NCBI GenBank assembly: GCA_022820645.1
Contig: JAJEFD010000013.1
Location: 71,308-135,307 of the forward strand
DNA from: Dehalococcoidia bacterium
GTDB lineage: Bacteria; Chloroflexota; Dehalococcoidia; Lucifugimonadales; Australimonadaceae
Length of the DNA: 64,000 bases
Direction of reading: 5' to 3'
The notes beneath the pieces were generated by a model. The model searched no databases, was not told the origin of the DNA, and saw only the letters and a list, made by a program, of their open reading frames with translations. The position numbers were made by a program, and so were the translations under genes. Below are positions 3,349 to 46,920 of this stretch, one piece after another. Each line of letters opens with the position of its first letter. Position 1 is the first letter of the stretch.

Positions 3349-5127
3349 TCAGGCGCGCTGCTGGCGGTGCGACTCGATGATGTCGCCTTCCTGGAAGTCG
3401 TTGAACCCTTCGAGTGAGACGCCGCACTCGTAGCCGGTCGCGACTTCGCGCACGTCGTCCTTGAACCGGCGCAGCCCGGCGATCGCGCCGTCGAAGACCG
3501 TCTCGCCGTCGCGGATGACCCGTCCTCGCGCGCCTCGCGTCAGTCTTCCGTCCGTCACGTAGCAGCCCGCGCTCTTCCGGTTGCGCCCGAGCGAGAACAC
3601 GGCGCGCACTTCCGCCGTGCCTTCGGTCACGTCCTGGATCGTCGGTTCCAGCAGGCCGTGCAGCGCCTTCTCCACGTCCTCCGTGAGGCGGTAGATGATG
3701 TCGTAGCGCCGTATCTGCACGTTGTCCTGATCGGCAAGGCGTTGCGCGCCCTGGTCCGGGCGGACGTTGAAGCCGATGACGATGGCGTCCGACGCAACCG
3801 CGAGCATCACGTCGCTCTCGGTGACGGCGCCCGTGCCGCTGTGGATGAGGCGTATCTGCGTCTCCGGGGTGCTCAACCGCTCCAGCGCCTGCCGGACGGC
3901 TGCGATGCTGCCCTGCACGTCCGTCTTGAGGATGAGCCGCAGCTCCTTCGTCTGGCCGGACGATATGCGCGCGCCCATCTCTTCCAGCGTCGCGCCACGC
4001 ACCCGGTTGAGGTCCTCACGCCGCAGCCGCTCCGCGACCGTCGCGCGCGCGGTCTTCTCGTCCGGCACCACGACCAGCCGGTCCCCCGCGCCGGGGAGTT
4101 CGCTGAGGCCCAGCACCTCGACCGGCATGGACGGCCCGGCATTGTGAGTGCGCTTCCCCTCAGCGTTCACGAGCGCCTTGACGCGCCCGCGCGTCGAGCC
4201 GACGACGATGTGATCGCCGACCCGCAGCGTACCGGTCTGCACGAGTATCCGCGCCAGCACGCCCCGGTTGCGGTCCAGCTCCGCCTCCACGACCACCCCG
4301 ACGCCGGGACGCTTCGGGTTCGCCTTCAGCTCCGCGACCTCGGCAACGAGCTCGATGCTCTCCAGCAGGTCGGGGATGCCGTCGCCTGCCTTCGCCGAGA
4401 CCTCGACGTCGATCACGTCGCCGCCCCACTTCTCGACCACGAACTCGTGCTCGGAGAGCTGCCGCCGTACCCGCTCGGGGTCGGCGTTGGGGCTGTCCAT
4501 CTTGTTGATGGCCACGATGATCGGCACTTCCGCCGCCTTGATGTGGTCGATCGCCTCGACGGTCTGCGGCATCACGCCGTCGTCTGCTGCGACGACGAGC
4601 ACAGCGATGTCCGTCACCTGCGCGCCGCGTGCGCGCATCGCCGTGAACGCCTCGTGACCGGGCGTGTCGATGAACGTGACGGGTGTGCCGTTGTGCACCA
4701 CCTGGTACGCCCCGATGTGCTGCGTGATGCCGCCCGCCTCCCTCGCGACGACGTTCGTGCGGCGGATGGCGTCGAGCAGGGTCGTCTTCCCGTGGTCGAC
4801 GTGACCCAGCACCGTTACGACGGCGGGCCGGGTTTCGAGGTCGGCGGACTCGTCCTCCGCCACGCCGCCGCCTGCGGCGCTGACGGAGTCCTCCACCTTC
4901 CGCGCGGCGTACCCGAACACCCGGGCCACGCCTGCTGCGGTATCGAAGTCGATGATCTGGTTGATGCTCGCGAACACTCCGCCGCGCATCAACTGCTTGA
5001 TGACCTGCACGGGTTCCACGCGCATCCGCTCCGCAAGCACCCCGACGGCGATCGCCTCGCCTATGGGCAGCGCCCGGAGTGTGACTCGACGGGTGGCGGT
5101 TGCCGACCTCTGTGGTTCTTCGACCAT
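3349..5127 (-). CDS. infB: translation initiation factor IF-2 (short N-terminus)
   Basis: GTPase motifs are present: [28 protein letters not shown]. The conserved C-terminal domains follow. The start is taken at MVEEPQRSA (ATG 5127); upstream track residues are Arg-rich and overlap ylxR. Confidence 0.95.
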
Positions 5128-7030: not shown

Positions 7031-7224
7031 GCGTCCCTTCTACCTCCAGCATCGGCAGTTCCGAGAAAGCGCGAGAGTGGGCTGCGCCCACTCTCAACAG
7101 GGCAATACTACTCCTTTAAACGCCTGCCGTCCACTCGTAACCGGAGGCATTCTGCCAACTGAGACCCCATGTCGGCGCATGGCTATCAACACGCGCAGCA
7201 AGACAACGCACGCAGCAAACCTCC

Positions 7225-7432
7225 GTCATTCCAGCACCGGCTGGAATCCAGGGGGCGCGGGCAGCGCACGTGGGCGAGGCGGAGCGTGGGGGAGGGAATG
7301 TTGTCATGCTGAGCGGAGCGCAGCGGAGTCGAAGCATCCTCGGAGTTGTCTGGTGTAGGGGCGTCCCTTGTGGGCGCCCTTCCCCCACCTCTCCCAAAGG
7401 GCGAGGTGGACGCGCTTGCGCGGCGGGTGAGA
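7225..7432 (+). repeat. composite REP cluster (types A, E, D, C in series)
   Basis: Type A variant gtcattccagcaccggctggaatccag at 7225-7251. Type E tgtcatgctgagcggagcgcagcggagtcgaagcatcctcgg at 7302-7343. Type D gtaggggcgtcccttgtgggcgccc at 7355-7379. Type C cccacctctcccaaagggcgaggtggacgcgcttgcgcggcgggtgagag at 7383-7432. Confidence 0.9.
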
Positions 7433-7523
7433 GCGGACCTACTCCGTAGACAACTTGACCGCGGATGATTACGATTCGCACTGTGAACTACTAGGCACGA
7501 TTGGATTCGCAAGGAGGGCAGCC

Positions 7524-9164: not shown

Positions 9165-9171
9165 GCCTTCC

Positions 9172-9198
9172 GTCATTCCCGCGAAGGCGGGAATCCAG
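9172..9198 (+). repeat. type-A REP hairpin copy
   Basis: gtcattcccgcgaaggcgggaatccag, 8 nt after the stop of the 76-aa ORF. Confidence 0.9.
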
Positions 9199-9299
9199 TG
9201 CGGCCGTCAGGCCACGTAGGGTGGTTGGCCGTGCGGCAGCGCGGCGGGTGAGGGTGGACCGGCGGGCGCGAAGCGGTATGCAGACGCATCCGAGGAGGG

Positions 9300-11577: not shown

Positions 11578-13776
11578 TCACCCGGTGCAAAACGGGAGAT
11601 CGAGGGCACCCAGCTCTAGTGTTCGAACATTTCGGAACGAGGCGGGGATGCATGTAGTAACGGAGAAGGGATTGGGGCCTAGCTCCAGGTTCTCCAAGTT
11701 GGTCAGCCGGCCTAGCTCGTAAGGGATCTCGCCGGTGAGCTGATTGCCGCCCAGCCTGAGCCACTTGAGCCCAGTCAGGTTCGCCAGGGCGGCTGGGATA
11801 GCACCGGTGAGCTGATTGTTGGACAGGAGGAGGAAGCCCAGGCCTGTCCGGTTCCCGAGTTCGACAGGGATTGCGCCGGTGAGCTGATTATCGGACAGGA
11901 GCAGGGACCGGAGTCTCGGCATGCTTCCGAATTCGGCAGGGATCCCTCCGGTGAGTAGATTGCCGGAAAGGTCCAGCCATCCCAGTTTCGGCATACTCGC
12001 CAGTTCGACGGGGATCCCGCCGGTGAGTTGGTTGACGGACAGTGTCAGCGAATCCAGGTTCGCGAGGCGCGCCAGCTCAGCGGGGATCTCGCCTGTGAGT
12101 TGATTCCCTGACAACTGCAGTGATTTCAGGTTGGACAGGTTCGCCAATTCGGTCGGGATCGCGCCCGTGAGCTTGCCGCCCAGGTGGAGTCCTTCCAGGT
12201 TTGACAGGTTGCCGAGTTCAGGCGGAATAGCGCCCGTGAGGCCATCGCTATAAAGCCTCAGTTCTGTGACGCCAGTCAGGTCTCCCAGTTCAGGCGGGAT
12301 CGGCCCTGTGAGGCGGAGATTGGCCAGGCTCAGCTGCGTCACGCGCTGGGGCGAGCCGCCGAGCGTGACACCGTCCCACGCTCCCAGGGGCACCTCTTCG
12401 AACCAGTTGAGTTGGTCCCCCGCCCCAAGAGCGTCCCGCGCCGACAGCAGTATTGCGCGGTCCCGTTCGAGAGCGGGGTTGGTTTCGTGGACGTTCATGT
12501 CGTCGCAGACGCCGAGACGCATCCCCCCTAGCTCCAGGGTAGGGATGTCGAGGTAGGAGGCAGGCAGGCAGGAGAAGGGGTTGGATCCCAGCGACAGTCC
12601 ATTGAGGTTCGGCAGGTCTCCCAGCGCGGGCGGAAGTGGATCGGTGAGTTGGTTGTGGTCTAGCCACAACTGGATCAGGTTCGTCAGTCTGCCGAGTTCA
12701 GACGGTACCGCGCCGGTCAGTTGGTTGTGAGAGAGGCGCAGGTACTGCAGAGATGTGATCTCCCCGAGTTCAGGAGGGATTTCGCCCGTGAGCATGTTTG
12801 CTCGTACGCTCAACCCGGTCAGTTTCCTCAGCCTTCCCAGTTCGGGAGGGATCTCGCCCGTGAGTCGATTGTGGACCAGATACAGGTTCTGCAATTCCTC
12901 CAGGTTCCCCAGTTCGGATGGGATATTGCCAGTCAGATCGTTGACCGCCAGCCGCAACGTCTCCAGGTTTGTCAGGCTTCCGAGCTCAGGCGGAATCTCG
13001 CCCGTGAGGTCGTTGTGCGTTAGTTCCAAGTGCTGCAGTTCCCTCAGACTCCCCAACTCAGATGGGATCCCGCCCGTGAGGTCATTGCCGGAAAGGTTGA
13101 GGTTCTCCAGCTCCTTCAGGTTTCCCAGCTCAGGTGGGATCGCACCCGTGAGGCCGACCCTATTGAACCCGTTGTCAGCCAGGTCCAGTGTCCGCAGTTT
13201 CTCCAGCATCCCCAACGCAGCCGGGACCGCTCCGGACAGTTCTCGGTTGGGCAACGAGAGCGCTATTACCCGTAGCGGGTCTCCGCCGACCGTCACCCCG
13301 TCCCACTCCTGTATCCGCACCGTGCCTTCCCAGTTGAGCGTCGCGGTCCCCGCCAGGGTGTCCCGCAGCAGCAGGAGCGTCGAGGCATCCTGCGTGAGGC
13401 CGGGCCCGGCCGTCAGCCTATAGGCCGGCGTCGGTGTGGGCGTGGGTGTCGGCGAGGGCGTAGGGGTCAGGCTTGGGGTCGGAGTGGACGTGGACGTGGG
13501 AGTGGGAGTCGGTGTGAGCGTAGGCGTGGGCGTCGGAACAGGCGTTGGAGTTGCGGTTGGCGTGGGTGTAGGGGTAGGCGTGGGAGTTGGAGTGCTCGTG
13601 GGTGTGGCCGTTGCCGTTGGGATGGCCGTGGCGGTGGGCGTCGGCGAAGCGCATGCGGCAGCATCACGCCCAGCAGGACGACCACCAGTATGGAAAGGAC
13701 TCGCATCGACACTCCGCCTACCTGTGTGCGACGCAACGGCAAGAGGCACCACGACTCGCAGTGCCGCCGCGCGCAC
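11578..13776 (-). CDS. leucine-rich repeat (plant-type LRR) protein with Pro/Thr-rich linker; N-terminus uncertain (possible frameshift)
   Basis: There are about 25 tandem 24-residue repeats LxxLxxLxLxxNxLTGxIPxELGx in two blocks. Each block is preceded by a cap like [19 protein letters not shown] / [19 protein letters not shown]. The track start at 13776 is a GTG. A much better lipoprotein signal peptide is in the -1 frame (see findings). Confidence 0.85.
13428..13650 (-). repeat. Pro/Thr-rich low-complexity coding repeat (linker of LRR protein)
   Basis: It encodes [74 protein letters not shown]. At nucleotide level it is (ggygtN)n on the plus strand. Confidence 0.9.
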
Positions 13777-15933: not shown

Positions 15934-15938
15934 TCCCG

Positions 15939-15965
15939 TCATTCCCGCGAAGGCGGGAATCCAGA
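15939..15965 (+). repeat. type-A REP hairpin copy
   Basis: gtcattcccgcgaaggcgggaatccag, 6 nt after the SDR stop. A second hairpin agtggccgccaggccac follows. Confidence 0.9.
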
Positions 15966-16032
15966 GTGGCCGCCAGGCCACACGGTGGGGTGGCTGGGGG
16001 AGGGGCGCTTGCGCGGCGGGTGAGGGTTCCCC

Positions 16033-18005: not shown

Positions 18006-19370
18006 ATGACACAGCGCGGCATGCGGAAGGAACAGACCCTCTTCGAGCACGTGCGGCGACAGCACGAGGACGAGAACGCCCCGCTCGCGGCCCGCATGCG
18101 CCCCCGCACGCTCCAGGAGTACGTCGGACAGCGCCACCTCCTCGGCGAGGGCCACGTGCTGGAGCGCGCCATCCGCACCGGCCAGGTGCCCTCCATGGTG
18201 CTCTGGGGCCCGCCCGGCACCGGCAAGACCACCCTCGCAAGGCTCGTCGCCGGCCTCACGAAGTCCCACTTCATCGGCGTCTCCGCCGTCACCTCCGGCG
18301 TCGCCGACCTCCGGCAGGCCGTCGAGGAGGCCCGCGAGATACGCGCCACCGAGGACCTCGGCACCATCCTCTTCGTCGACGAGGTGCACCGCTTCAACAA
18401 GGCCCAGCAGGACGCCATCCTCCCCCACGTCGAGAACGGCACCGTCACCTTCATCGGCGCGACCACCGAGAACCCGTCGTTCGAGGTCATCTCCGCGCTC
18501 CTCTCCCGCACCCGCGTCCTCACGCTCCACCCGCTCTCCGACGACGAGATCGCGCACGTGGTGCGTCACGCGCTCGCCGACACCGAGCGCGGGCTCGGCA
18601 ACGAGAACGCGACGCTCGACCCCGACGCGCTGGCCTTCCTGCAGGAGGTCGCCTCCGGCGACGCCCGCGTCGCGCTGAACGGCATCGAGCTCGCGACCGA
18701 GATCGCGCTCCGCCACCCCGACGGCACGAAGCGGATCGACCGCCCGCTGATGGAGGAGGCGCTCCAGCGCCGCGCCCTCCACTACGACAAGGCGGGCGAC
18801 AGCCACTACGACACCATCTCCGCGTTCATCAAGTCGGTGCGCGCGTCGGACCCGGACGCCGCGGTCTACTGGCTCGCGCGGATGCTCGAGGCGGGCGAGG
18901 ACCCGCTCTTCATCGCGCGGCGCATCGTCATCCTCGCGGCGGAGGACGTCGGCATGGCCGACCCGCATGCGCTGCCGGTTGCCGTAGCGGCGCAGCAGGC
19001 CGTCCACTTCGTCGGCCTGCCGGAAGGCGCGATTCCGCTGGCCGAGGCGACGGTCTACCTCGCGACCGCCCCCAAGAGCAATGCCTCATACATGGCGCTG
19101 AACCGCGCGATGGACGAGGTCCGCACCGGGCGCCAGCACCCCGTGCCGCTCCACCTGCGCAACGCCGTCACCGGTCTGATGCGCAACCTCGGCTACGGCG
19201 CGGACTACAAGTACGCCCACGACTACAAGGGGCACTTCGCGGGTCAGCAGAACCTGCCGGACGAGCTCGCGGGCAAGCGCTTCTACGAGCCCGGCGACCA
19301 GGGCTACGAGCAGACCGTCCGCCAGCGGCTCGAGGCCTGGTGGGGGAAGGCGAAGCGCGAGGGTGCTTAG
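18006..19370 (+). CDS. rarA: replication-associated recombination protein A (AAA+ ATPase)
   Basis: LAARMRPRTLQEYVGQRHLLGEG...MVLWGPPGTGKTTLARL (Walker A), ILFVDEVHRFNKAQQD (Walker B), and the MgsA C-terminal domain. Confidence 0.93.
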   Translation: MTQRGMRKEQTLFEHVRRQHEDENAPLAARMRPRTLQEYVGQRHLLGEGHVLERAIRTGQVPSMVLWGPPGTGKTTLARLVAGLTKSHFIGVSAVTSGVADLRQAVEEAREIRATEDLGTILFVDEVHRFNKAQQDAILPHVENGTVTFIGATTENPSFEVISALLSRTRVLTLHPLSDDEIAHVVRHALADTERGLGNENATLDPDALAFLQEVASGDARVALNGIELATEIALRHPDGTKRIDRPLMEEALQRRALHYDKAGDSHYDTISAFIKSVRASDPDAAVYWLARMLEAGEDPLFIARRIVILAAEDVGMADPHALPVAVAAQQAVHFVGLPEGAIPLAEATVYLATAPKSNASYMALNRAMDEVRTGRQHPVPLHLRNAVTGLMRNLGYGADYKYAHDYKGHFAGQQNLPDELAGKRFYEPGDQGYEQTVRQRLEAWWGKAKREGA

Positions 19371-19382
19371 AGGAAGAGTGAG

Positions 19383-20303
19383 ATGCGCTTGCGCGAAGAA
19401 GACATGCTCGCGCCGTTGAGGTCAGGTAACCTGCGCCGCTTCCTCTCCACCTATCGCTGGGAGGTTTGGTTCTTCCTCGGTGTGCCCGTGATCGTTGGAG
19501 CAGTCCGCCAGTTGGTCCGGTGGTTGGTGCACTTTGATAGCAGCACTTGGTATCACGGATCGGACCTAGCGATTGGTGCACTGGGGCTTGCTCTGCTGGC
19601 CGCTGCTTTCCCGCTCGTTCTCCGACGAGGGCGTCAACTCTTGGTTCTGTTATGGGGCTTTGAACTTGTTACGCAGGGCACGAGCATCGCTTTGAAAGGA
19701 TTTGACCTGACCAGGGGAGAACCACCCGCTGGGGTACAGCTGTTCACGATACACACCGTTGGTGATCTGCATTACTTTTCTACGGTCAGTGCTTGGGTCG
19801 GGGTTCTCGCTCTGGTCTGGTTTGCGAGACAGGCCTCGCGCATAAGCACTGCTCATGCATTCCTGTTTGTGGGTTTGTCTTTCGCTACTTCCAGTTTCAG
19901 TCTGCAGCCGTTCGTGTTTGAATCGTCATCAGGATATGTGGACTTATTCGCCGCGATCTATCTGATATCTGCAATAGCCGTGAACATCCTTGCCCTGTGG
20001 GCGATGGTACATCTTGAATCCAAGAGGATGGCTTTCCCTGTAACTGCTACGGTGGGATTGTTTGGAATGGCAATAGGGAAGTCCTTGTTTGGGGTATATG
20101 CCTTGTTCCCGGTACTCGCCGCATCTTACGGATACAGGCTTCTTGAGCAACTGTTTGAGGACTGGGGCGTGATCAGTATGGCGATGTTGGGGCACGCCCT
20201 GCAGTTCGGGTTGTACAACCTCCTCCCACTCCCGCTCATATACCTCGTGCGCGTACGCCGCCGCGCACCAGTCGTATCTGCTCCTGCGTACCGGGAGAGT
20301 TGA
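19383..20303 (+). CDS. hypothetical polytopic membrane protein, low-GC gene
   Basis: 306 aa with about 7-8 hydrophobic segments (WEVWFFLGVPVIVGA, AIGALGLALLAAAFPLVL, ...). G+C is visibly lower than in flanking genes. It starts 13 nt after the rarA stop. No family recognised. Confidence 0.55.
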   Translation: MRLREEDMLAPLRSGNLRRFLSTYRWEVWFFLGVPVIVGAVRQLVRWLVHFDSSTWYHGSDLAIGALGLALLAAAFPLVLRRGRQLLVLLWGFELVTQGTSIALKGFDLTRGEPPAGVQLFTIHTVGDLHYFSTVSAWVGVLALVWFARQASRISTAHAFLFVGLSFATSSFSLQPFVFESSSGYVDLFAAIYLISAIAVNILALWAMVHLESKRMAFPVTATVGLFGMAIGKSLFGVYALFPVLAASYGYRLLEQLFEDWGVISMAMLGHALQFGLYNLLPLPLIYLVRVRRRAPVVSAPAYRES

Positions 20304-20367
20304 TGCATGCCGCATGGGGTCCGTATGCAAGGCGTGGTGGGGAAGGCCCGGCGTGCTCCCCAGCCCC

Positions 20368-20394
20368 GTCATTCCAGCGAAGGCTGGAATCCAG
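20368..20394 (+). repeat. type-A REP hairpin copy
   Basis: gtcattccagcgaaggctggaatccag. Confidence 0.9.
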
Positions 20395-20480
20395 AGCCCG
20401 ACAGCCGCTGACGCAGGGGAATCGTTACCGTTTTCACAATATCTGCGCGAAATCCGCCGGAAATTCCGTGTGAATAGGGA

Positions 20481-20509
20481 TTGCATGTCCGCACATGAGG
20501 GCTTACAGT
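20481..20509 (+). promoter_or_regulatory. candidate sigma70-type promoter (TTGCAT-17 nt-TACAGT)
   Basis: TTGCAT at 20481-20486, a 17-nt spacer, then TACAGT at 20504-20509. Pattern match only. Confidence 0.3.
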
Positions 20510-20612
20510 GGACTCAAGGAGCCTTGCCGGAGGCGGGCGGTCGAGTTCTGCGGAGGCAGACGCGGTCCAGGTGCCGCTCCGGAAGGGTCCGCTGAACGAA
20601 AGGAGGTGCACC

Positions 20613-20684
20613 ATGGGCATACGCGCGGTCTACGTGCTGCATCACCGGTGGCACTTCCCTTGTCCGGCCCTCCCGCCGGCGTAA
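20613..20684 (+). CDS. candidate 23-codon micro-ORF (MGIRAVYVLHHRWHFPCPALPPA)
   Basis: The near-perfect SD GAAAGGAGGTG (20598-20608) lies 6 nt before ATG 20613, and the TAA stop is at 20682-20684. It is too short for the ORF track. An anti-SD CACTTCCCTT (20652-20661) lies inside the ORF. Confidence 0.25.
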   Translation: MGIRAVYVLHHRWHFPCPALPPA

Positions 20685-20851
20685 CGCGCTGACGGAGGAG
20701 GGCAAGCGGAAGCCGGAAGCTCCGTTACACAGAGCAGGCAGAAGCGCCCGGAACGGCTCGACGAAGCCCGAGGCGGCCTGAGTCCGGCAGTGATTGCCGG
20801 GAACGGCAACGGAGCGGAAGGTGAGCCCCGCGCGACGCGGGGCACAAACCA

Positions 20852-20890
20852 GTGCCGGAGCGGCTGGCAAGCCTCTCCGGCACTTTTATT
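20852..20890 (+). terminator. intrinsic (rho-independent) terminator
   Basis: GTGCCGGAG (20852-20860) pairs with CTCCGGCAC (20875-20883). There is an inner GGCT/AGCC extension, and TTTTATT follows. Confidence 0.7.
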
Positions 20891-20893
20891 CTC

Positions 20894-20920
20894 GTCATTC
20901 CCGCGAAAGCGGGAATCCAG
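20894..20920 (+). repeat. type-A REP hairpin copy
   Basis: gtcattcccgcgaaagcgggaatccag, immediately after the terminator T-run. Confidence 0.9.
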
Positions 20921-20967
20921 GAGCGTTCGCCAAGGCACACGGCCACGCGGTGTGGCGGCACTCGCTC

Positions 20968-22029
20968 TTACACCCCGTAGAACGCCGCCGGGTTGTCCTC
21001 CAGGATCTTCCGCGCGACCGTCTCGCTGATGCGTCCCTCCGACGCCCAGCGGCGCACCGCGTCGATCGCGTCCGGCTCCGCCGACGTATCGAAGTGCGAG
21101 TAGTCGGTGCCCATCATCAGGCTGTCCTCGGTGCCGTAGGTCAGGATGTGCGAGATGTCCTCGACCGCGTCCACGGCCACGAAGAACTTGTTCTTCTTGA
21201 AGAGGTCTTCGCCCATCTCGAACTTCCGTATCCAGGAGCGCCGCTTCTTCTCGGCCTTCAGCCGGTCGACCACGTACGGGATCCACGTCGAGCCCGCCTC
21301 GATGAAGCCCCAGCGGATGTTCGGGAACTTGTCCGGCACCTCGTAGAGCACCAGCGCGTGGAACGCGTCCATGATGGGGATGCCGCCCAGGCTGTCGCCG
21401 TGTCCCAGCCGCGCCTCGGTGGGGTTGCCCGCGCCCGTGTGGATGCAGACCGGCATGTCCAGCGCGCTCGCCTCCTCGTACAGCGGGAAGAAGTACGGGT
21501 CGCTGACGCGCCTGCCGTGCTCCAGCCCGCGCTTGAACACACCCACCGCGCCGTTCTCTTTCGCCCAGCGCAGGTAGCTCACCGCCGCGTCCATGTCCAG
21601 CAGCGGCGGGACCGCGACCCACCGCAGCCGTCCCTCCGTCGGGGCGCACTTGCTGGAGACGTAGCGGCTCCAGCTGTCGACCAGCGCGCGCTCCGCCTCC
21701 GGGTTGCCGGTGATGTAGGAGAGGAAGAACGTCGGGTAGATGACGTGCATGTCGACCCCGCGCTCGTCCATGTGCTGCAGCCGTTCGTTCACGTCCAGCA
21801 GCTCGCGCGAGTTGAGCGTCGTGCCGGTCAGCTCGTCGTTGCGGATCATCCGCTGGCGGAGCCTGCCGTCCACGAGCCACCACCTGCTCGCCGAGGCGTC
21901 CATCCCGCCGGGGACCACGCCCTCGGGCGGGGAGATCGTGACGGGGCGGAACCGCGCCGCCGCGCCCTCCATGTACTGCCACGCCTCTTCCGGTTCGTCG
22001 ATGTGGGTATCTGCGTCTATAACGGGCAT
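20968..22029 (-). CDS. amidohydrolase-2 (ACMSD-like) family metal-dependent hydrolase
   Basis: MPVIDADTHIDEPEEAWQYMEG...DMHVIYPT...VCIHTG...GTDYSHFD. The SD gggggagg lies before ATG 22029. Confidence 0.85.
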   Translation of the reverse strand: MPVIDADTHIDEPEEAWQYMEGAAARFRPVTISPPEGVVPGGMDASASRWWLVDGRLRQRMIRNDELTGTTLNSRELLDVNERLQHMDERGVDMHVIYPTFFLSYITGNPEAERALVDSWSRYVSSKCAPTEGRLRWVAVPPLLDMDAAVSYLRWAKENGAVGVFKRGLEHGRRVSDPYFFPLYEEASALDMPVCIHTGAGNPTEARLGHGDSLGGIPIMDAFHALVLYEVPDKFPNIRWGFIEAGSTWIPYVVDRLKAEKKRRSWIRKFEMGEDLFKKNKFFVAVDAVEDISHILTYGTEDSLMMGTDYSHFDTSAEPDAIDAVRRWASEGRISETVARKILEDNPAAFYGV

Positions 22030-22327
22030 GTCGCGCCTCCCCCGTTCGTGCTCGCATGCGGCTGCCACCGCGCGCGCAGTCTACTACGCCCCGCCTCAGG
22101 TGCAACGCCCATATCCTGTGCATCCTGCACATCCCTGTCGATTGTCGGATGTGTGACACGCGCCACTTGCGCGAATGTCCGACCGTGCCGCACGATGGTA
22201 GAGCGCGATAACAGAGCGCGCACTTGAACCCTTGCGGACAAGCCGCAGGAAGACCGCTGCCCCCTCAGCGAAGAGCACGAGGGGGCTTTCTGTGTTAACC
22301 GGGTATCCGGGTGGAGAAGGTGGACCC

Positions 22328-23905
22328 GTGGCAGAAGACCTCACAAGATACAGGAACGACCCCGTCGGCTTCGTGACGGACGTGCTCGGCGAGGCAGGGG
22401 CGCCGTACTCGAAGCAGGTCGAGATGCTCGAGGCGGTCGTGGAGCATCGGCGCGTCTCGGTCGTCGGAGCGAACGGCTCCGGCAAGGACTGGACCGCCGC
22501 ACGCGCCGTGCTCTGGTGGCTGGAGACACGTCCGGAGGCCACCGTCCTCGTCACGGGCCCGACCCAGCGGCAGGTCGAGGAGATCGTCTGGCAGCAGATG
22601 CGCCTGGCGCACGCAGCCGGGGAAGACCGCCTCAGCGGGAAGATGTTCACGTCGAAGTACCGCATCGACGACAAGCGTTTCGCCATCGGCTTCTCCACCA
22701 ACAAGGCCTGCAACATCCAGGGCTTCCACTCCCCGGAACTGCTCGTCATCGTCACGGAGGCGCACGCCATGCCCCAGGACCAGATGGACGCCATCAAGCG
22801 CCTGCACCCCAACCGGTTGCTGCTCGTGGGCAACGCCATGTCGCTCGACGGCGAGTTCTACGAGTCCCACCACTCGAAGCGCGCCCGCTATCACCGCATC
22901 CGCATCTCCGCCTACGACACGCCCAACTTCACCGGCGAGAACGGCGGCGTCCCCGGGATGATCACGCCCGACGACGTCGAGGAGCTCGCCCTCGACTGGT
23001 CGGAGGACCACCCCGCGTACGTCTCCGCCGTCCTCGCGCAGTTCCCGGACGCCCAGGAGGACTCGCTCGTCGTACGCGACGCCGTGGAAGCCGCCATGGA
23101 GCGCGGCGAGGCTCTGCTCGATTGTCATTCCGAGCGGAGCGCAGCAGAGCCGAGGAATCTCTCGGGTGCAGACCCCGCTGTGGACGAACGTTCTCCGAGA
23201 GATGTTTCGACTTCGCTCAACATGACAGCCCTGTCCGTCGACGACCCCGACGCGGGCATGCCCGTCTACGTGGGCGTCGACGTGGCGCGGTTCGGCTTCG
23301 ACAAGTCCGCCATCTGCGTGCGGCGCGGGCAGCGCGTGCTGAGCCTGCGCTCCTTCCAGGGGATGGACACGATGCGGCTGGTCCACGAGATCCTGCAGAC
23401 GGTGGAGCAGACGGGCGCAGAGGCCATCTTCGTGGATGAGGGCGGTATCGGCGGGGGCGTCGTGGACAGGCTGAAGGAGCTCGGGGCGCCCGTCTACGGC
23501 AAGCACTTCGGCGGGAAAGCGCCGCACCGCACGCGCTTCTACAACATGCGCTCCGAGTTCTTCTGGGAGTTGCGGCTGCTGCTCAACGACGGCCTCGTCG
23601 CGCTGCCGCGCGACGAGGAGCTCGCCGGACAGCTGGTCTCGCTGCGCTACGACGTATCGAGTTCCGGTCAGGTGCGGCTGCAGGGGAAGAAGGAGATGCG
23701 GAAGCGGGGCCTGCCGTCGCCCGACAAGGCGGACGCGCTCGCGCTTGCTTTCCTCGTGCCGCCGTCGCTCGGCATCTGGACGGGCACCGAGCCCCTCCTC
23801 GACGACGACCGCCGTTCGCCGCACTTCGGCCTCGGCTACCGGCCTCCGCCCGATGAGGACTCGCAGCCCAGCCCCAGCCTCGGGATATGGTTCGGACGAC
23901 CTTGA
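22328..23905 (+). CDS. phage terminase large subunit-like protein (orphan), carrying an in-frame repeat insertion
   Basis: ATPase motifs: VSVVGANGSGKDW (Walker A) and PELLVIVTEAH (Walker B). RNase H-fold nuclease motifs: VGVDVARFGFDKSAI, FVDEGGIGGGVVDRL, SPDKADALALAF. GTG 22328 after ggtggagaagg is my start guess; the track ATG is 22232. Confidence 0.8.
   Translation: MAEDLTRYRNDPVGFVTDVLGEAGAPYSKQVEMLEAVVEHRRVSVVGANGSGKDWTAARAVLWWLETRPEATVLVTGPTQRQVEEIVWQQMRLAHAAGEDRLSGKMFTSKYRIDDKRFAIGFSTNKACNIQGFHSPELLVIVTEAHAMPQDQMDAIKRLHPNRLLLVGNAMSLDGEFYESHHSKRARYHRIRISAYDTPNFTGENGGVPGMITPDDVEELALDWSEDHPAYVSAVLAQFPDAQEDSLVVRDAVEAAMERGEALLDCHSERSAAEPRNLSGADPAVDERSPRDVSTSLNMTALSVDDPDAGMPVYVGVDVARFGFDKSAICVRRGQRVLSLRSFQGMDTMRLVHEILQTVEQTGAEAIFVDEGGIGGGVVDRLKELGAPVYGKHFGGKAPHRTRFYNMRSEFFWELRLLLNDGLVALPRDEELAGQLVSLRYDVSSSGQVRLQGKKEMRKRGLPSPDKADALALAFLVPPSLGIWTGTEPLLDDDRRSPHFGLGYRPPPDEDSQPSPSLGIWFGRP
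23123..23227 (+). mobile_element. 105-nt MITE-like inverted-repeat element inserted in frame inside the terminase-like CDS
   Basis: Left arm tgtcattccgagcggagcgcagcagagccgaggaatctctcgg, ~30-nt core, right arm ccgagagatgtttcgacttcgctcaacatgaca. The architecture matches the intergenic copy at 24005-24119. It translates as CHSERSAAEPRNLSGADPAVDERSPRDVSTSLNMT. Confidence 0.8.
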
Positions 23906-23936
23906 TCGGAGGAGGCCGCGTCATGCCGCGATCCTC

Positions 23937-23963
23937 GTCATTCCCGCGAAGGCGGGAATCCAG
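23937..23963 (+). repeat. type-A REP hairpin copy
   Basis: gtcattcccgcgaaggcgggaatccag, followed by a second hairpin gtgaccgtgaggtcac. Confidence 0.9.
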
Positions 23964-24004
23964 AGTGACCGTGAGGTCACACGGTGGGGAGGTGCGAGGA
24001 GGGG

Positions 24005-24119
24005 TGTCATGTTGAGCGGAGCCGGAGGCGCAGTCGAGATATCTCTCGGGATGCGTTGGCTGCCATGCGGCGTTATCCGAGAGATTCCTCGACTCCGCTG
24101 CGCTGCGCTCGGAATGACA
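24005..24119 (+). mobile_element. 115-nt MITE-like inverted-repeat element (intergenic full-length copy)
   Basis: tgtcatgttgagcggagccggaggcgcagtcgagatatctctcgg ... ccgagagattcctcgactccgctgcgctgcgctcggaatgaca. The arms are imperfect inverted repeats of each other. Confidence 0.8.
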
Positions 24120-24140
24120 GTGACGGGTGAGGGGCTTCCC

Positions 24141-25193
<1,053 letters not shown>

Positions 25194-25256
25194 CGTCCTT
25201 CGTCCTTCACCGGGGGGATACGGGGATTCTACCAGCGCCTGCTAAACTGGGGAGCG

Positions 25257-25769
25257 ATGGTCGCGTTCCTCTACAAGCACGGGCTGGTCATCCTGATCGC
25301 GCTGCTGGCGTTCACGGCGGACCAGTTCTCCAAACTGGGCATCGAGCTCTACCTCCCGATGTATTCGTCCTGGCCGGAGGAGGGTTTCTTCCGTTTCACG
25401 CACGTCGCGAACACGGGAAGCGCGTTCGGGCTCTTCGGCGGGAACAACATGCCGCTGACCATCGCCTCCATCGTCGGCATCGTCGTGCTCGTCCTCTTCT
25501 ACCGCTCGCAGGGCACGCCGGGCGTCTGGGTGCAGACGAGCCTGGGCCTGATGTTCGCGGGCGCGTTCGGGAACCTGGCCGACCGCATCAGGCTGGGGCA
25601 CGTCACCGACTTCATCGACGTCGGCCCCTGGTACATCTTCAACCTCGCGGACGCGTCCATCGTCACCGGCATCATCATCTTCGGTGCGATGCTCCTCTTG
25701 ACCCGCCCGGCGCCCCGCCCCACGCTCGTCACAACGAGCACCCCCGGCGACGAGGAGTACGTCGATTAG
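25257..25769 (+). CDS. lspA: lipoprotein signal peptidase II
   Basis: FTADQFSKL...HVANTGSAFGLF...GAFGNLADRIRLGHVTDFID...FNLADASI, the LspA catalytic Asp motifs. ATG 25257 lies within track ORF 23745..25769. Confidence 0.9.
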   Translation: MVAFLYKHGLVILIALLAFTADQFSKLGIELYLPMYSSWPEEGFFRFTHVANTGSAFGLFGGNNMPLTIASIVGIVVLVLFYRSQGTPGVWVQTSLGLMFAGAFGNLADRIRLGHVTDFIDVGPWYIFNLADASIVTGIIIFGAMLLLTRPAPRPTLVTTSTPGDEEYVD

Positions 25770-25794
25770 GGAGAGGGGACCAGAGAGCACGGAA

Positions 25795-26706
25795 GTGCGG
25801 TTCACCGCAAGCGAGGCCGACACCGGCTCGCGGGTGGACACGTTCGTGCAGGCGCGGGACCCGTCGTTCAGCCGCTCGCGGGCGGCCGCGCTGGCGCGCG
25901 ATGGCCATGTCACCCTCAACGGACGCCCCGTCAAGCCGTCGGCCGCCGTGCGCGGCGGCGACGTGGTGGTCGTCGTCGTGCCGCCGCCGTCGCCGCTCGA
26001 CCTCGCGCCGCAGGACATCCCCGTCGGCATCGTCTACGAGGACGACCAGCTCATCGTGGTGGACAAGCCTGCGGGGCTCACGGTGCACCCCGCGCCGGGA
26101 CACCCGGACGGCACGCTCGTGAACGCGCTGCTGGCGCTCGTGCCGGACCTGCCGGGCATCGGGGGCGTGGAACGCCCCGGCATCGTGCACCGGCTCGACA
26201 AGGACACGTCCGGGCTCATCGTCGTGGCGAAGACGGACGCGGCGCACCGCAGCCTCTCGCGGCAGATGAAGGAGCGCAGCGTCGACAAGTCTTACGTCGC
26301 GTTGACGACCGGGGCGATACGCGATCCCATAGGCGAGATCGACGCGCCCGTCGGCAGGCATCCGAAGCAGCGCAAGAAGATGGCGGTGGTGGAGGGAGGA
26401 CGCGCTGCCCTTACGCAGTATCGGGTCGTCGAACGCTTCGACGGGCCGCGCGGCAGGTTCACGCTGGTCGAGGCGCATCCGGTCACCGGGCGCACGCACC
26501 AGATACGCGTGCATCTCGCCTCGATCGGCCACCCGCTCGTGGGCGATCCGGTGTACGGCAGACACTCGCCGCTCGTGCCCCGGCACTTCCTGCACGCTGC
26601 GCGGCTGGAGATAGCGATGCCTCCGGGGGAAACGGAGCGTAAGACGTTCGAGTCGCCGCTGCCGGACGACCTCTCCGACACGCTGTCGGAGTTGCGGAGC
26701 GTCTAA
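25795..26706 (+). CDS. rluD: RluA-family 23S rRNA pseudouridine synthase (RluD-like) with S4 domain
   Basis: HRLDKDTSGLIVVAKT catalytic motif plus GRTHQIRVHLASIGHPLVGDPVYG. GTG start. Confidence 0.9.
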   Translation: MRFTASEADTGSRVDTFVQARDPSFSRSRAAALARDGHVTLNGRPVKPSAAVRGGDVVVVVVPPPSPLDLAPQDIPVGIVYEDDQLIVVDKPAGLTVHPAPGHPDGTLVNALLALVPDLPGIGGVERPGIVHRLDKDTSGLIVVAKTDAAHRSLSRQMKERSVDKSYVALTTGAIRDPIGEIDAPVGRHPKQRKKMAVVEGGRAALTQYRVVERFDGPRGRFTLVEAHPVTGRTHQIRVHLASIGHPLVGDPVYGRHSPLVPRHFLHAARLEIAMPPGETERKTFESPLPDDLSDTLSELRSV

Positions 26707-28706
26707 CCTCCCGTGAACCAGTTGCGGATGAACGGCTCCGGGTAGATGACGAAGAGGATGTTGTCCAGGAACACCTTGATGAATATGCCGACGACCGCGG
26801 CGGCGATGAGCGCCATGAGGAACCGCCCGTAGCCGCGCAGCAGCACGATCGGCCCCGCGAGCGCGAACGCAAGGGCTCCCCACCTGAGTCCTACGGTCGT
26901 GCCGATCAGCAGGAAGAGAGCGAACAGGCCCAGCATCCGGTACGCCGCCTCCCGCGCGCCCTCGGCGTTTCCACTGACGAGGCCGAGGTCCATGATGGTG
27001 GAGGGACGCGGCCGGCCACGAAGCCCGCGGAACAGCTCGAAACCGAGCAGCACCAGCGCGATGACCGGCAGCCAGAACGGGTAGGTGGTGAACCGCCAGC
27101 GGTCCTGCACGGGGTGCGACAGGTGGTCTGACAGCATCAGCGCCATCCCCGCCATGACCACGAGCGGGATGAGCACGTCCGGGTTCAGGAAGCGCTCCTT
27201 CCACCCTCGGGTTGGGGTGCTTTCGGCGCCGGCCTCCTCCACCGCGAGCTCCGTTTCGCGCTCCATGCGTCTGACGGAGCGTAGGAGCACCGCAGCGACG
27301 GTGATCGCGATGAGCAGGATGACGATGGTGATGGGGCGGGTGAGCGATCCGGGATAGCCGTGGATGCTGACCGCGTTGAAGTGGTTGCGCTCGATGACGT
27401 CGACGAGGATGAAGCCGAGGATCATGGGCGGCCTCGGCCAGTTGTAGCGCTTCATCACGAGCCCCATCGCACCGATGCCGAGGGCGATCTGGATGCCGCG
27501 CCAGCTCGTCGTGTCCACGAACGTGGAGAGCAGCGCGATAGGGATGACGACCGCGCCGATGATGGGATACGGGACAGCGGTGAGGCGCGCGAGGAAGCCG
27601 GTGACGCCCACGCCGATGCCGGAGATGATGAGGTTCGCGAGCGCCAGCGTTATCACGAGGAGGATGGTGATGTGGGCCTGCGAGCCCAGCATCTCCGGGC
27701 CGGGTGCGACGCCGTACGGGATCATGGCCACCACGACGAGCGCCCACGTCGGCGCGCCGGGGACGCCGAGCGCCAGCGTGGGGAGCGCCGCGCCCGCCTC
27801 TTTCGCGTTCTGGGCGGACTCCGCGAAGAGCACGCCGTCCAGCGAGCCCTTGCCGAACTCCGAGCGGTCCTTCGCGAGGATGATGCCGAACGCGTACGCC
27901 AGCCAGTCCACCACGGCGGAGCCGACGCCGGGGATCGCCCCGAGGAAGACGCCGAAGGCGGACTGCCGCACCGTCATCTTCCACCGGGAGATGCCGTAGC
28001 CCACGCCGCGCAGGACCTCGCTTCTGCCGAAGGTCGCGCCCTCCGCGGCCACCGGACGGCGGCTCATCATCAGGTCGACGAGCTCCGGCAGCGCGAACAG
28101 GCCGATGATGAACGGCACGAGCGGCATGCTCACGAACGGGTCCACCGTCAGCCTGCCCATCGTGCCGATGATGCCGAGCAGCATCCCCACGATCGCGGAG
28201 ATGAGGCCGCGCACCATCGCGCCCCGGCTCAGCACGATGACCATGGCGATGCCGACCATGCCAGTCGCCGCTATCTCCGGGAAGCCGAAGCGGAGCACGA
28301 ACGGGCGCGCGACAGGGATGGCGATGGTGAGCAGCGCCGCCCCGACGATGCCGCCCAGCGCGGAGACGGCGTAGACCGCGCCGAGCGTATGCGCGGCGTA
28401 CCCCCGCCGGGCGAGCTGGTGGCCTTCCAGGAACGTCACCTGCGTCGCGGCGCTCGGTTGCCCGATGAGGATGGCGGGCACGGAGTCGAGCGTGTTGCTG
28501 ACGCCGCTGATGGTCGCGAGGGCGACGAGCCCGATGGCGGGTTCGTCGACCTCGAAGAGGATGAAGGGGAAGGCGAGCGCCATCACGAGGAAGGCGTTCA
28601 TGCCGGGGATCGCGCTCGCGAGGGCGGCGAGCGCGACGACGCTGAGGAGCACGGCCCAGTAGACGGGGTCGAGCAGGTAGCCGAGCGCCGTGAGGATGGC
28701 TTCCAT
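26703..28706 (-). CDS. tripartite tricarboxylate transporter permease, TctA with C-terminal TctB-like extension
   Basis: The first ~500 aa are TctA-like (MEAILTALGYLLDPVYWAVLL...GMNAFLVMALAFPFI...). An extra ~160 aa with 4 further hydrophobic helices follow, giving 667 aa in total. The TctB assignment is inference. Confidence 0.8.
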   Translation of the reverse strand: MEAILTALGYLLDPVYWAVLLSVVALAALASAIPGMNAFLVMALAFPFILFEVDEPAIGLVALATISGVSNTLDSVPAILIGQPSAATQVTFLEGHQLARRGYAAHTLGAVYAVSALGGIVGAALLTIAIPVARPFVLRFGFPEIAATGMVGIAMVIVLSRGAMVRGLISAIVGMLLGIIGTMGRLTVDPFVSMPLVPFIIGLFALPELVDLMMSRRPVAAEGATFGRSEVLRGVGYGISRWKMTVRQSAFGVFLGAIPGVGSAVVDWLAYAFGIILAKDRSEFGKGSLDGVLFAESAQNAKEAGAALPTLALGVPGAPTWALVVVAMIPYGVAPGPEMLGSQAHITILLVITLALANLIISGIGVGVTGFLARLTAVPYPIIGAVVIPIALLSTFVDTTSWRGIQIALGIGAMGLVMKRYNWPRPPMILGFILVDVIERNHFNAVSIHGYPGSLTRPITIVILLIAITVAAVLLRSVRRMERETELAVEEAGAESTPTRGWKERFLNPDVLIPLVVMAGMALMLSDHLSHPVQDRWRFTTYPFWLPVIALVLLGFELFRGLRGRPRPSTIMDLGLVSGNAEGAREAAYRMLGLFALFLLIGTTVGLRWGALAFALAGPIVLLRGYGRFLMALIAAAVVGIFIKVFLDNILFVIYPEPFIRNWFTGG

Positions 28707-31015: not shown

Positions 31016-31154
31016 GGGACAGGGCACCCACGAGAGGTGTCCCTACACCAGACACCAACCCTCACCCGCCGCGCGAGCGCGTCGACCTCTCCCAGGGGGC
31101 GAGGTGGGGGGCTACCTCCGCGCCACACCCCACCGTGTGACCTCCCCGGTCACT

Positions 31155-31181
31155 CTGGATTCCAGCCGGTGCTGGAATGAC
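31155..31181 (-). repeat. type-A REP hairpin copy (inverted orientation)
   Basis: ctggattccagccggtgctggaatgac, preceded by gtgacctccccggtcac. Type D and C copies lie at about 31020-31110. Confidence 0.9.
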
Positions 31182-31199
31182 GAGGCTTGCGCCGCGCGG

Positions 31200-34596: not shown

Positions 34597-34816
34597 GGCG
34601 ACACCCCCTTCTCCGCACGGGAAGATTAGCATGTCGCGCCAACCCTCACCCACACGCTGGGGGGACCCTCACCCACACGCTGGCGCGTGTTGCCCTCTCC
34701 CAGGGGGCGAGGGGGGCGAACAGCCCGAGAGGATGTTGCGCGCTAAAGCGCGGGCTTCGCTCAACATGACAATATCCCCCACACCCGCCACGCCCCACGT
34801 GCGCTGCCCGCGCACC

Positions 34817-34842
34817 CTGGATCCAGCCGGTGCTGGAATGAC
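34817..34842 (-). repeat. type-A REP hairpin copy (inverted orientation)
   Basis: ctggatccagccggtgctggaatgac, within a REP-filled 320-nt gap (34597-34915). Confidence 0.85.
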
Positions 34843-34915
34843 GGGGGCTGCGCCCCGCGTCCGGTCACCCTCTCCCGCCGCTGCGCGGCGACCTCTCCCC
34901 TCAAGGGAGAGGGGG

Positions 34916-36256: not shown

Positions 36257-36667
36257 GGGGCCCTCCTTTCGATGGCAACGGGACGACGCGGGCAGCGTAG
36301 CGTGCGGAGAAGGGCGGTTCAAGTGCGAGCACTCTCACCGCGCGCTGAAGCGCGTTCCTCTCCCAGGGGGCGAGGTGGGGGAAAAGGGCGCCCACGAGGG
36401 ATGCCCCTACACCAGACTTCACCCGAGAGGTTTCTCGGCTACGCTCGAAATGACAACACCCGCGCCACCACCGGTTCACCCTCTCCCGCCGCGCAGGCGC
36501 ACGGCGACCTCTCCCCTCAAGGGAGAGGGGGACCCTCACCCACACGCTGAAGCGTGTTGCCCTCTCCCAGGGGGCGAGGGGGAGGCGAGATTCCTGCCTA
36601 CGCAGGAATGACAGGGGGCTCGCCGTGTGGCGAGCCCCTTTGTCACTTACGCTGCGTGGGACGTGTC

Positions 36668-45632: not shown

Positions 45633-45744
45633 ATATGACAGGTTACGTGAGTGCGCGGGATAAGCGCAATGATTGAGTGACGCAACGAGAGCCCGCCTTA
45701 CGGGATCGCCTGTGCAGGTGCGGGATGACGGCGCTGCCGGAGGC

Positions 45745-46905: not shown

Positions 46906-46920
46906 CGTGTTTCTCCTTGC

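Follow-up and report, generated by a model that had tools for sequence, protein, structure and literature searches.

How a phage DNA-packaging enzyme can persist, apparently intact, outside any phage genome is the question raised by a single gene in a 64-kb stretch of the Dehalococcoidia contig JAJEFD010000013.1 (positions 71,308 to 135,307; hereafter the window). The window has a G+C content of ~68% and carries many short families of repetitive extragenic palindromic (REP) sequences and miniature inverted-repeat transposable elements (MITEs). An earlier reading of its letters, referred to here as the original prediction, had proposed that the gene at 22328..23905 on the forward strand encodes the large subunit of a phage terminase (TerL) and that it is retained under selection, for instance as part of a dispersed system resembling a gene transfer agent (GTA), with a fresh prophage remnant as the alternative. 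From the comparisons described here it is concluded, with high confidence, that selection maintains the gene as a functional TerL paralogue and that it belongs to a dispersed regulon of phage origin. The best explanation of the whole, to which a probability of roughly one half is assigned, is a domesticated, dispersed and co-regulated set of head and packaging genes that is GTA-like and has the window gene as one of its terminases; that this regulon makes DNA-packaging particles is held with moderate confidence. Its members would be five TerL types, a small-terminase (TerS)-like helix-turn-helix (HTH) protein, a solo portal protein, and an operon for a prohead protease and a major capsid protein (MCP) of the HK97 type.

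Proteins of this family are listed in public annotation as "hypothetical protein," and the analysis gives them a name. Within an open reading frame (ORF) at 22232..23905 (+), a conserved GTG start at 22328 and a TGA stop at 23905 delimit 525 codons, whose product is predicted from profile matches and a structural model to be a large terminase, with an additional-strand catalytic glutamate (ASCE) ATPase in residues 1-265, an RNase H-like nuclease in residues ~305-478, and a C-terminal tail. A ribosome-binding site, GGAGAAGG (22313..22320, +), lies 8 nt 5' of the start codon, and its form, GG(A/T)G(A/G)GAAGG/GAGAGG at 8 nt before GTG, is kept in an alignment of four of the paralogue types introduced below (A-D). 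The complete TerL architecture that had been proposed was based on motifs that are all found at the positions given for them, and their conservation was assessed in 60 homologues with 58-95% identity to the window protein. The Walker A motif VGANGSGKDW (22463-22492, +) and the Walker B motif with its catalytic glutamate, LLVIVTEAH (22739-22765, +), each contain four invariant residues (G52, K53, D54, and W55 in the former; T143, E144, A145, and H146 in the latter), and across the set the ATPase motifs GANGSGKDW and LLV(I/V)VTEAH are unchanged. The nuclease core (23270..23752, +) comprises the stretches VGVDVARFGFDKSAI (23270-23314), with GVDVARFG and D318; FVDEGGIGGGVVDRL (23429-23473), with FVDEGG and D370/E371; and SPDKADALALAF (23717-23752), with D466/D469. 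The acids D318, D370/E371, D466, and D469 are likewise invariant, and the loss of catalytic residues that the original prediction had considered is not seen.

The family assignment comes from PHROG_2 (terminase large subunit), which matches residues 9-479 with E=8.6e-36. Pfam matches are sub-threshold only, the Terminase_6N family scoring 15.8 bits against a cut-off of 22, and neither a search of NCBIfam nor an exact-sequence look-up of the protein gave a match. An AlphaFold2 (AF2) model built from the 60 homologues has a mean predicted local distance difference test (pLDDT) score of 73, with long low-confidence stretches only at residues 266-300 and 485-525. When this model is compared with the Protein Data Bank (PDB) by Foldseek, the best matches are all large terminases (Sf6 gp2 at 6e-17, D6E, T4 gp17, HK97, and the E217 nuclease); TerL ATPase domains are matched, and the template modeling (TM) score is ~0.7 to the nuclease domains of Sf6, G20c, and E217. 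In a profile search of PDB sequences, the E217 TerL nuclease 8dkr has its catalytic motifs aligned with GVDVARFG.D and SPDKADALALA. The nearest TerLs in IMG/VR are 31-36% identical to the window protein and are without its C-terminal extension.

A TerL gene placed beside portal or TerS genes in a head-morphogenesis module is the arrangement of more distant relatives and is not that of the window. As had been described, an amidohydrolase gene (Amidohydro_2; 20968-22068, -) lies divergently on one side and a gene of the Beta_elim_lyase/threonine-aldolase type (24141-25193, -) convergently on the other; the remaining neighbours are housekeeping genes (MoaE/ThiS, MgsA/RarA, pseudouridine synthase, TctA, and others). 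In tblastn searches of the whole window, queries for the portal, protease, capsid, adaptor, and TerS had no match, in line with the claim that other phage genes are missing nearby, and neither an integrase nor att-like repeats were seen near any TerL copy examined. The composition of the gene is that of the host, the G+C content at third codon positions (GC3) being 0.92-0.93 without the MITE that the gene contains and 0.93-0.95 in neighbour genes.

The lack of other phage genes in 64 kb, the host MITE within the ORF, and the disruption of ~10% of the family are features that a decaying prophage remnant, its ORF intact by chance, would also show. Opposed to such a history are the ratios of nonsynonymous to synonymous substitution (dN/dS) of 0.14, 0.16, and 0.18 between the window TerL and its closest orthologues, at loci L012, L001, and L002, values covered by the span that the flanking host genes show (0.00-0.25); nine or more further genome bins, moreover, have the gene at the same syntenic site. 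Of the loci uncut by contig ends, ~44 of 49 (~90%) are intact, the ~5 disrupted ones being L033, L042, L043, L058, and L067; large linker insertions in the intact loci preserve the frame, and the regulatory region is more conserved than the coding sequence. Because the gene is under purifying selection, its catalytic residues are invariant, and nearly all uncut loci are intact, a decaying remnant is scarcely credible. The fresh prophage remnant kept open by the original prediction fares no better, nor does the notion of a gene confined to this genome under relaxed selection, given that many bins carry it in a syntenic family; retention under selection, as first proposed, is what the data favor.

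The gene is one of several in each genome. A homologue search returned 1644 matches, of which the best 120 have identities of 53% or more, and those with names come from Chloroflexi/Chloroflexota bins; a scan restricted to one genome per species found 158 relatives, and 80 of these were retrieved as loci in which ORFs were called and neighbours clustered. Dehalococcoidia, SAR202, or Chloroflexota bins are the source of all the retrieved loci except one, L043 (NZ_CBDBNY010000003.1), which carries a TerL of type B disrupted in the linker and is filed under a Candidatus Palauibacter (Gemmatimonadota) bin; because its flanks match Dehalococcoidia type-B synteny, the contig is probably mis-binned. 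Related genomes hold three to five solo TerL paralogues, as exemplified by five proteins on one contig of 3,235,595 bp, and by synteny the close relatives (55-95% identity) divide into five classes, A-E, each of which occupies its own chromosomal site with flanks conserved across bins. The window copy belongs to type A, which lies between the amidohydrolase and the aldolase (also in L001, L005, L006, L009, L011, L012, L033, L035, and others). Type B is situated between a major facilitator superfamily (MFS) transporter and the neighbour clusters c57-c60; type C follows a ferredoxin-like gene, the TerS-like gene, and c9; type D is near Ku and ligase genes, with the TerS-like gene also present; and type E comes after pyrG, among large proteins of ~976 aa. 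All five types occur on the chromosome OY764542.1, and three or four in the window's nearest relatives (CBDCQO01, DAOUJO01, and OZ244813.1). A distance tree places type E at the base and joins A to B; types C and D are intermingled in it, which suggests gene conversion between these two. The paralogues share 57-80% amino-acid identity with one another, and the duplications are ancient. Record names suggest that the clade with solo TerLs consists of sponge symbionts.

Several of these sites have further genes of some interest beside the TerL. Genes resembling BrnT/BrnA, ribbon-helix-helix, and HigA proteins, assigned by resemblance without a family search, adjoin several copies (e.g. L018 10905-11288, L024 5125-5373, and L025 5430-5690, all from type C and D loci), and GIY-YIG nuclease genes, confirmed by Pfam, adjoin several copies as well. 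An element of ~1.1 kb, probably an insertion sequence, is present in 99%-identical copies on OY764542.1 (L019 4854-5938, L024 3136-4222, and L015 1-812); at L019 it lies between the TerL leader and the ORF, which are 1.2 kb apart.

What the paralogues share at the DNA level extends beyond the coding sequence. In pairwise blastn comparisons, the similar stretch has a sharp beginning ~190 nt 5' of the start codon and reaches as far as the stop codon, and this control region is more strongly conserved than the TerL coding sequence itself. In the window, it opens with a promoter-like element (22152..22196, +) composed of TGTGACAC (22152-22159), the -35-like hexamer TTGCGC (22167-22172), which follows TGTGACAC after 7 nt (8 after TGTGACA), and, 18 nt further on, the -10-like hexamer CACGAT (22191-22196), which in type B is CATAAT. 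The element is found upstream of every solo TerL in the retrieved loci, and it is single in the 64-kb window, with a chance expectation of 0.00 matches. Promoters of the sigma-54 class have a spacing of 5 nt at the corresponding place, and a sigma-54 reading of TGTGACA...TTGC was ruled out because the spacing here is 8 nt.

Directly after the promoter-like element comes a conserved leader (22197..22298, +) of three hairpins, a tail, and the sequence TTAA. The first is a GCGCG hairpin (22203-22221); the second, P1 (22230-22249), has the arms CCUUGCGG and CCGCAGG around ACAAG (GCGG-ACGAG-CCGC in the alignments of copies); and the third is a terminator-like hairpin, GCCCCCTC/GAGGGGGC (22259-22286), followed by the tail TTTCTGTGTT (22287-22296) and TTAA. 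When 40 leaders are aligned, 98.4% of the proposed pair cells are paired, as compared with 38-64% in slid controls. Compensatory changes occur in three leader pairs, one of them changing from CG to GC in all of type E, another from CG to UA in L065 and L071, and a third appearing as UA, UG, or CG. In other copies, REP elements are inserted only 3' of the leader TTAA. Conservation and layout together point to a promoter followed by an intrinsic terminator.

A sharply bounded unit present several times per genome also invites the idea of a selfish multicopy element, ~1.8 kb long (190 nt of upstream sequence plus the ORF), that spreads with TerL as its own mobilization enzyme. Copies of promoter and leader without a TerL behind them, at L015 4502-4660 and L017 5162-5320, would be in keeping with such spread. 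Yet each type is found at the same syntenic site in many bins, the paralogues are old, and the upstream unit also precedes unrelated genes (portal, protease, and TerS). The pairwise blastn comparisons, in which neither terminal inverted repeats nor target-site duplications were seen, rule out a transposon-type reading at these fixed sites, integrases are likewise not seen, and the selfish element in general is very improbable.

After the orphan copy at L015 comes an RCC1-repeat gene in opposite orientation, and RCC1-repeat genes also adjoin the solo portal (L081, L165, and L166) and lie near TerL P0034 (L164). At L081, a copy of the promoter motif (4028-4048, -; TGTGACAC-N7-TTACGC-N18-TACCCT) is located ~245 nt 5' of a gene of the Meth_synt_2 family; it may be an extra member of the regulon or a chance match, and no hairpin is obvious there.

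The distribution of the control region beyond TerL is what turns a family of solitary terminases into a candidate regulon. In types C and D, the motif is also found upstream of a gene for a 133-aa HTH protein that matches small-terminase PHROGs (phrog_2538, 1.4e-6); for this TerS-like gene, the likeness is one of promoter only, as the hairpin comparison covered the leaders of TerL, portal, and protease-capsid genes. A portal profile search located a portal gene, P0199, on a 2,911,394-bp contig that also bears TerLs P0034 and P0103, and in the record ena:ERZ25069191:ctg587063_24x_l the TerL is at 0.91 Mb and the portal at 1.93 Mb, ~1 Mb apart. The solo portal has TRCF, RCC1-repeat, Ada, RDD, and EF-G genes as neighbours and is preceded by GTGTGACA-N8-TTGCGC-N18-TAGCAT and a hairpin, GCCCCGGTCT/AGACCGGGGC, then TCTTTCG. 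On two independent metagenome contigs the portal recurs (92% identity), and its setting and the elements upstream of it are the same there; how general the solo portal is can be judged from the first contig and these two, only one solo-type genome being among the best 120 matches of the search. For the capsid, a search found MCPs ~80% identical to the module-linked MCP (described below) on four chromosomes with solo TerLs, OZ220673.1, OZ242210.1, and two others. On OZ220673.1, a chromosome where TerL types A, C, and E are present too, the gene order at the locus is Amidohydro_2-UDG-x-LigT followed by Peptidase_S78, an 82-aa ORF, and Phage_capsid, and the protease is preceded by TTGTGACAC-N8-TTTCGCG...TAACCT and then by a hairpin, GCCCCGGCC/GGCCGGGGC, with TTTTTTCG after it. 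Both the portal and the MCP pass the NCBIfam HK97 equivalog cut-offs and are conserved across samples and bins (92 and ~80%, respectively), and the syntenic sites found comprise five for TerL, one for the portal, and one for the protease-MCP pair. A dispersed GTA-like system, one of the options raised at the outset, is supported by related chromosomes, where solo portal, protease-capsid, and TerS-like genes share control elements with TerL.

More distant relatives show the arrangement from which this scattered one may have come. At 39-54% identity, each genome has a single TerL in the retrieved loci, with Phage_portal directly after it (E=7e-66), often Peptidase_S78 and Phage_capsid nearby, and ImmA-like and XRE genes before it. 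The contiguous module is present in many sister bins, and a head-tail adaptor is seen in some sister loci. In one subclade, the module lies between LigT and an alpha/beta hydrolase gene, at the same Amidohydro-UDG-LigT site that holds the protease-capsid pair of OZ220673.1. A tblastx comparison of L054 with L082 shows collinear flanks from which, in the solo-type genome, a 5.8-kb ImmA-XRE-TerL-portal-DUF7700 segment is missing and the protease and MCP are kept. Because the flanks are collinear and the protease and MCP are retained, the module appears to have been resident and vertically inherited before its break-up. The ancestor would have been a contiguous module, ImmA/XRE-TerL-portal-DUF7700-protease-capsid, that sister lineages have kept at one site, and in the window's clade the comparison of gene orders indicates that the portal was relocated and TerL multiplied.

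Two parts of the TerL protein itself call for description. The inter-domain linker of the window copy contains a host MITE/REP element, TGTCATTCCGAGCG...CGCTCAACATGACA (23123..23227, +), of 105 nt, or 35 codons, in frame. It encodes residues 266-300 (CHSERSAAEPRNLSG...LNMT), which coincide with the AF2 segment of pLDDT <50. The element is missing from several orthologues and paralogues, and the same linker holds other REP types elsewhere; in intact loci, REP-derived linker insertions reach ~200 aa, every one in frame. That such repeats occupy both the gene and its surroundings had been noticed from the letters, and outside the gene they include a REP of the GTCATTCCCGCGAAGGCGGGAATCCAG type (23934-23964), 3' of TerL, and the intragenic MITE once more, in opposite orientation (24005-24119). 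Across the window, at least six distinct REP/MITE-like families (for example GTCATTCCCGCGAAGGCGGGAATCCAG, CCCTCTCCC...GGGAGAGGG, and CGCGCTTGCGCGGCGGGTGAGGG) fill most intergenic spaces, often as concatenated modules, with sites at 1676-1826, 7222-7434, 9169-9239, 15935-16027, 31052-31190, 34660-34915, and 36332-36585, and several of these families are also translated within the TerL linker of other paralogues.

The C-terminal tail (23762..23902, +) begins with PPSLGIWTG, the ancestral terminal motif, and continues into a clade-specific 39-aa extension that ends in PSLGIWFG. The duplicated motif, pointed out for the window protein as PSLGIWTG (23762-23785, +) and PSLGIWFG (23873-23896, +), proves to be a feature of the whole solo clade: module-linked TerLs terminate in ...PxSxxVW, and all solo types retain the motif (PPSFGIWTG) and add 35-45 residues that close with a further LG(I/V)W. 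In the AF2 model, the tail of the window protein is disordered.

A mechanism can be proposed in which these features act together. Each member would be driven by a promoter of the form TGTGACA-N8-TT(G/T)CGC-N18 plus a -10 element, and the leader after each promoter would end in a hairpin resembling an intrinsic terminator. Since a promoter followed at once by a terminator implies conditional read-through, the genes would probably be silent until an activator or antiterminator permits transcription to pass, whereupon they would fire jointly. The C-terminal ...GIW tail would then serve to dock TerL on the portal, where the enzyme would load capsids with DNA, and the outcome would be a gene-transfer-agent-like (viriform) system. 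As for the five TerLs, they could give the motor different DNA specificities or could form a mixed TerL ring on the portal; TerL rings are pentameric, which is the sole basis of the mixed-ring idea.

The same TerL genes could be read without any particle at all, as translocase-nucleases recruited to a cellular DNA transaction such as repair, recombination, or chromosome processing, with the portal and capsid genes as independent relics. Their solitary position among housekeeping genes, host-like composition, and purifying selection are all compatible with such a role, and an MgsA/RarA gene lies one gene away from the window copy. The common promoter and hairpin of the portal and protease-capsid genes, and the promoter shared by the TerS-like gene, indicate instead one regulon; independent relics would not be expected to be as conserved as the portal and capsid are (80-92%), nor a cellular enzyme to keep a portal-type C-terminal motif and re-create it at a new C terminus. 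A cellular role is accordingly judged quite unlikely.

Several observations nevertheless weigh against a packaging regulon of this kind. Leader covariation amounts to two or three events only, an Rfam search with leader and gene gave no match, scans with simple sigma-70 and terminator consensus rules (region 21900-24300) called nothing, and the folding free energy of the leader is ordinary for its composition (z = -0.43). The terminator rules are exceeded by a hairpin loop of 10-12 nt and an interrupted T-run, and the promoter hexamers are weak; as the scans and the folding energy give no support, the leader structure is argued from its conservation and from the few compensatory changes. Related genomes are the only ones in which portal and capsid genes are seen, the window's own genome being represented here by 64 kb, and all data are from metagenome bins. 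Among the loci examined, no tail, lysis, head-completion, or regulator genes were tied to the regulon, and five TerL paralogues are unneeded in any known GTA. Rates of change present a further difficulty. At the type-A site, the dN of TerL is 0.13 (window vs L005 or L011) and that of the flanking genes 0.02-0.04, such that TerL appears to be either fast-evolving or overwritten from a paralogue there. In comparable genome pairs, moreover, solo and module-linked forms are ~52% identical in TerL, 82% in the portal, and 80% in the capsid, and the excess divergence of TerL would also fit an arms race or a neofunctionalized role.

These rates keep alive the main rival explanation, in which the TerLs, and perhaps the portal and capsid with them, are kept as an anti-phage defence that interferes with packaging. 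The late activator or antiterminator of an infecting phage would switch the TerLs on, and they would compete for portals or cut concatemers and so abort packaging. An expanded, fast-evolving family, with a dN three to six times that of flanking genes at the same site and a divergence far above that of portal or capsid, would fit such a conflict; the intermixing of types C and D is consistent with gene conversion; toxin-antitoxin-like genes (by resemblance only) and a Pfam-confirmed GIY-YIG gene stand beside several copies; and the docking-type motif at the C terminus is duplicated. The promoter-then-terminator layout is that of phage late operons, a classic design exemplified by PR'-tR' and Q of lambda. 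Against these points, PADLOC has no match for TerL, the TerS-like protein, c9, or the portal; no known defence genes are consistently adjacent, and the loci are syntenic and outside variable defence islands; no phage is known with a matching promoter; and a full head set (TerS, portal, protease, and capsid) under one control better fits particle assembly. Interference with phage packaging is therefore considered unlikely, and a GTA-like head and packaging regulon remains the preferred reading.

Other features of the window lie apart from these questions. Seventeen tandem 72-nt (24-codon) units at 11695-13152, 61-100% identical to a reference unit in a region of G+C 0.61, look like a gene for a protein of the leucine-rich-repeat type; eukaryote-like repeat proteins are typical of sponge symbionts. 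Two adjacent stretches of ~555 nt (45743-46297 and 46919-47470; 90-91% identity, spacing 1173-1176 nt) represent a tandem gene duplication involving a 392-aa ORF (45745-46920, -). The cumulative GC skew, seen around ~19000-27000, declines steadily as far as a minimum at about 25-26 kb and climbs from there to the window end; the minimum, near the TerL locus, may mark a replication origin or terminus.

Comparison with known systems begins with ordinary phage terminases. The window TerL shares with Sf6 gp2, HK97, D6E, and T4 gp17 the two-domain fold, Walker A and B motifs, catalytic glutamate, and three acidic nuclease motifs, and it differs from them in sitting outside any phage genome, in a linker that tolerates REP insertions, and in a clade-specific extension that repeats the terminal ...GIW motif. 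The ancestral module, with ImmA/XRE, TerL, portal, protease, capsid, and sometimes an adaptor, and with no tail genes adjacent, is similar to phage satellites (PICI/cf-PICI), a family of which builds its own heads and borrows tails. Unlike satellites, however, the module has no integrase or replication module and occupies a fixed syntenic site across divergent bins rather than varying among strains, and a scatter over ~1 Mb, such as the genes have in the window's clade, is incompatible with a mobilizable island.

GTAs, which are domesticated phage particles, are known from a handful of lineages, and their origin is an open question. Those of Alphaproteobacteria, RcGTA and CcGTA, have in common with the present system phage-derived TerS, TerL, portal, prohead protease, and HK97-type capsid genes that are chromosomally fixed, vertically inherited, under purifying selection, and located at several loci. 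RcGTA is encoded at several loci (PMC5026251), and the distribution of GTA genes over several loci means that they are not co-packaged (PMC5026251, PMC9662315). In CcGTA, GafY activates the promoter and GafZ provides antitermination, and accessory genes at other places in the genome are coordinated (PMC11150451); a dedicated promoter with terminators to bypass would be a further likeness, read here from sequence alone. The systems differ in that the known GTAs carry TerL as a single copy in the main head-tail cluster, whereas the Chloroflexota/Dehalococcoidia system, known from genes alone, has five diverged solo TerLs, each with its own promoter and leader terminator-like hairpin. A literature search found no terminase or GTA described in Dehalococcoidia/Chloroflexota, and it is possible, if doubtful, that this is the first GTA-like viriform lineage of the phylum, with scattered head genes, one antitermination-controlled promoter type, and five intact TerL paralogues. 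Measured against known GTA-like systems, it is unusual in keeping five solo terminases conserved, an expansion of the packaging enzyme without precedent among known GTAs; in a shared promoter and leader that can be read from sequence; and in the preservation of intermediate stages of module break-up, with some Dehalococcoidia having the head module as one contiguous, vertically inherited block and their relatives having it scattered and re-wired. How a module can break up with its co-regulation kept, what purpose multiple terminases serve, and whether abundant, uncultured sponge symbionts exchange DNA by means of such particles are questions that these genomes now open.

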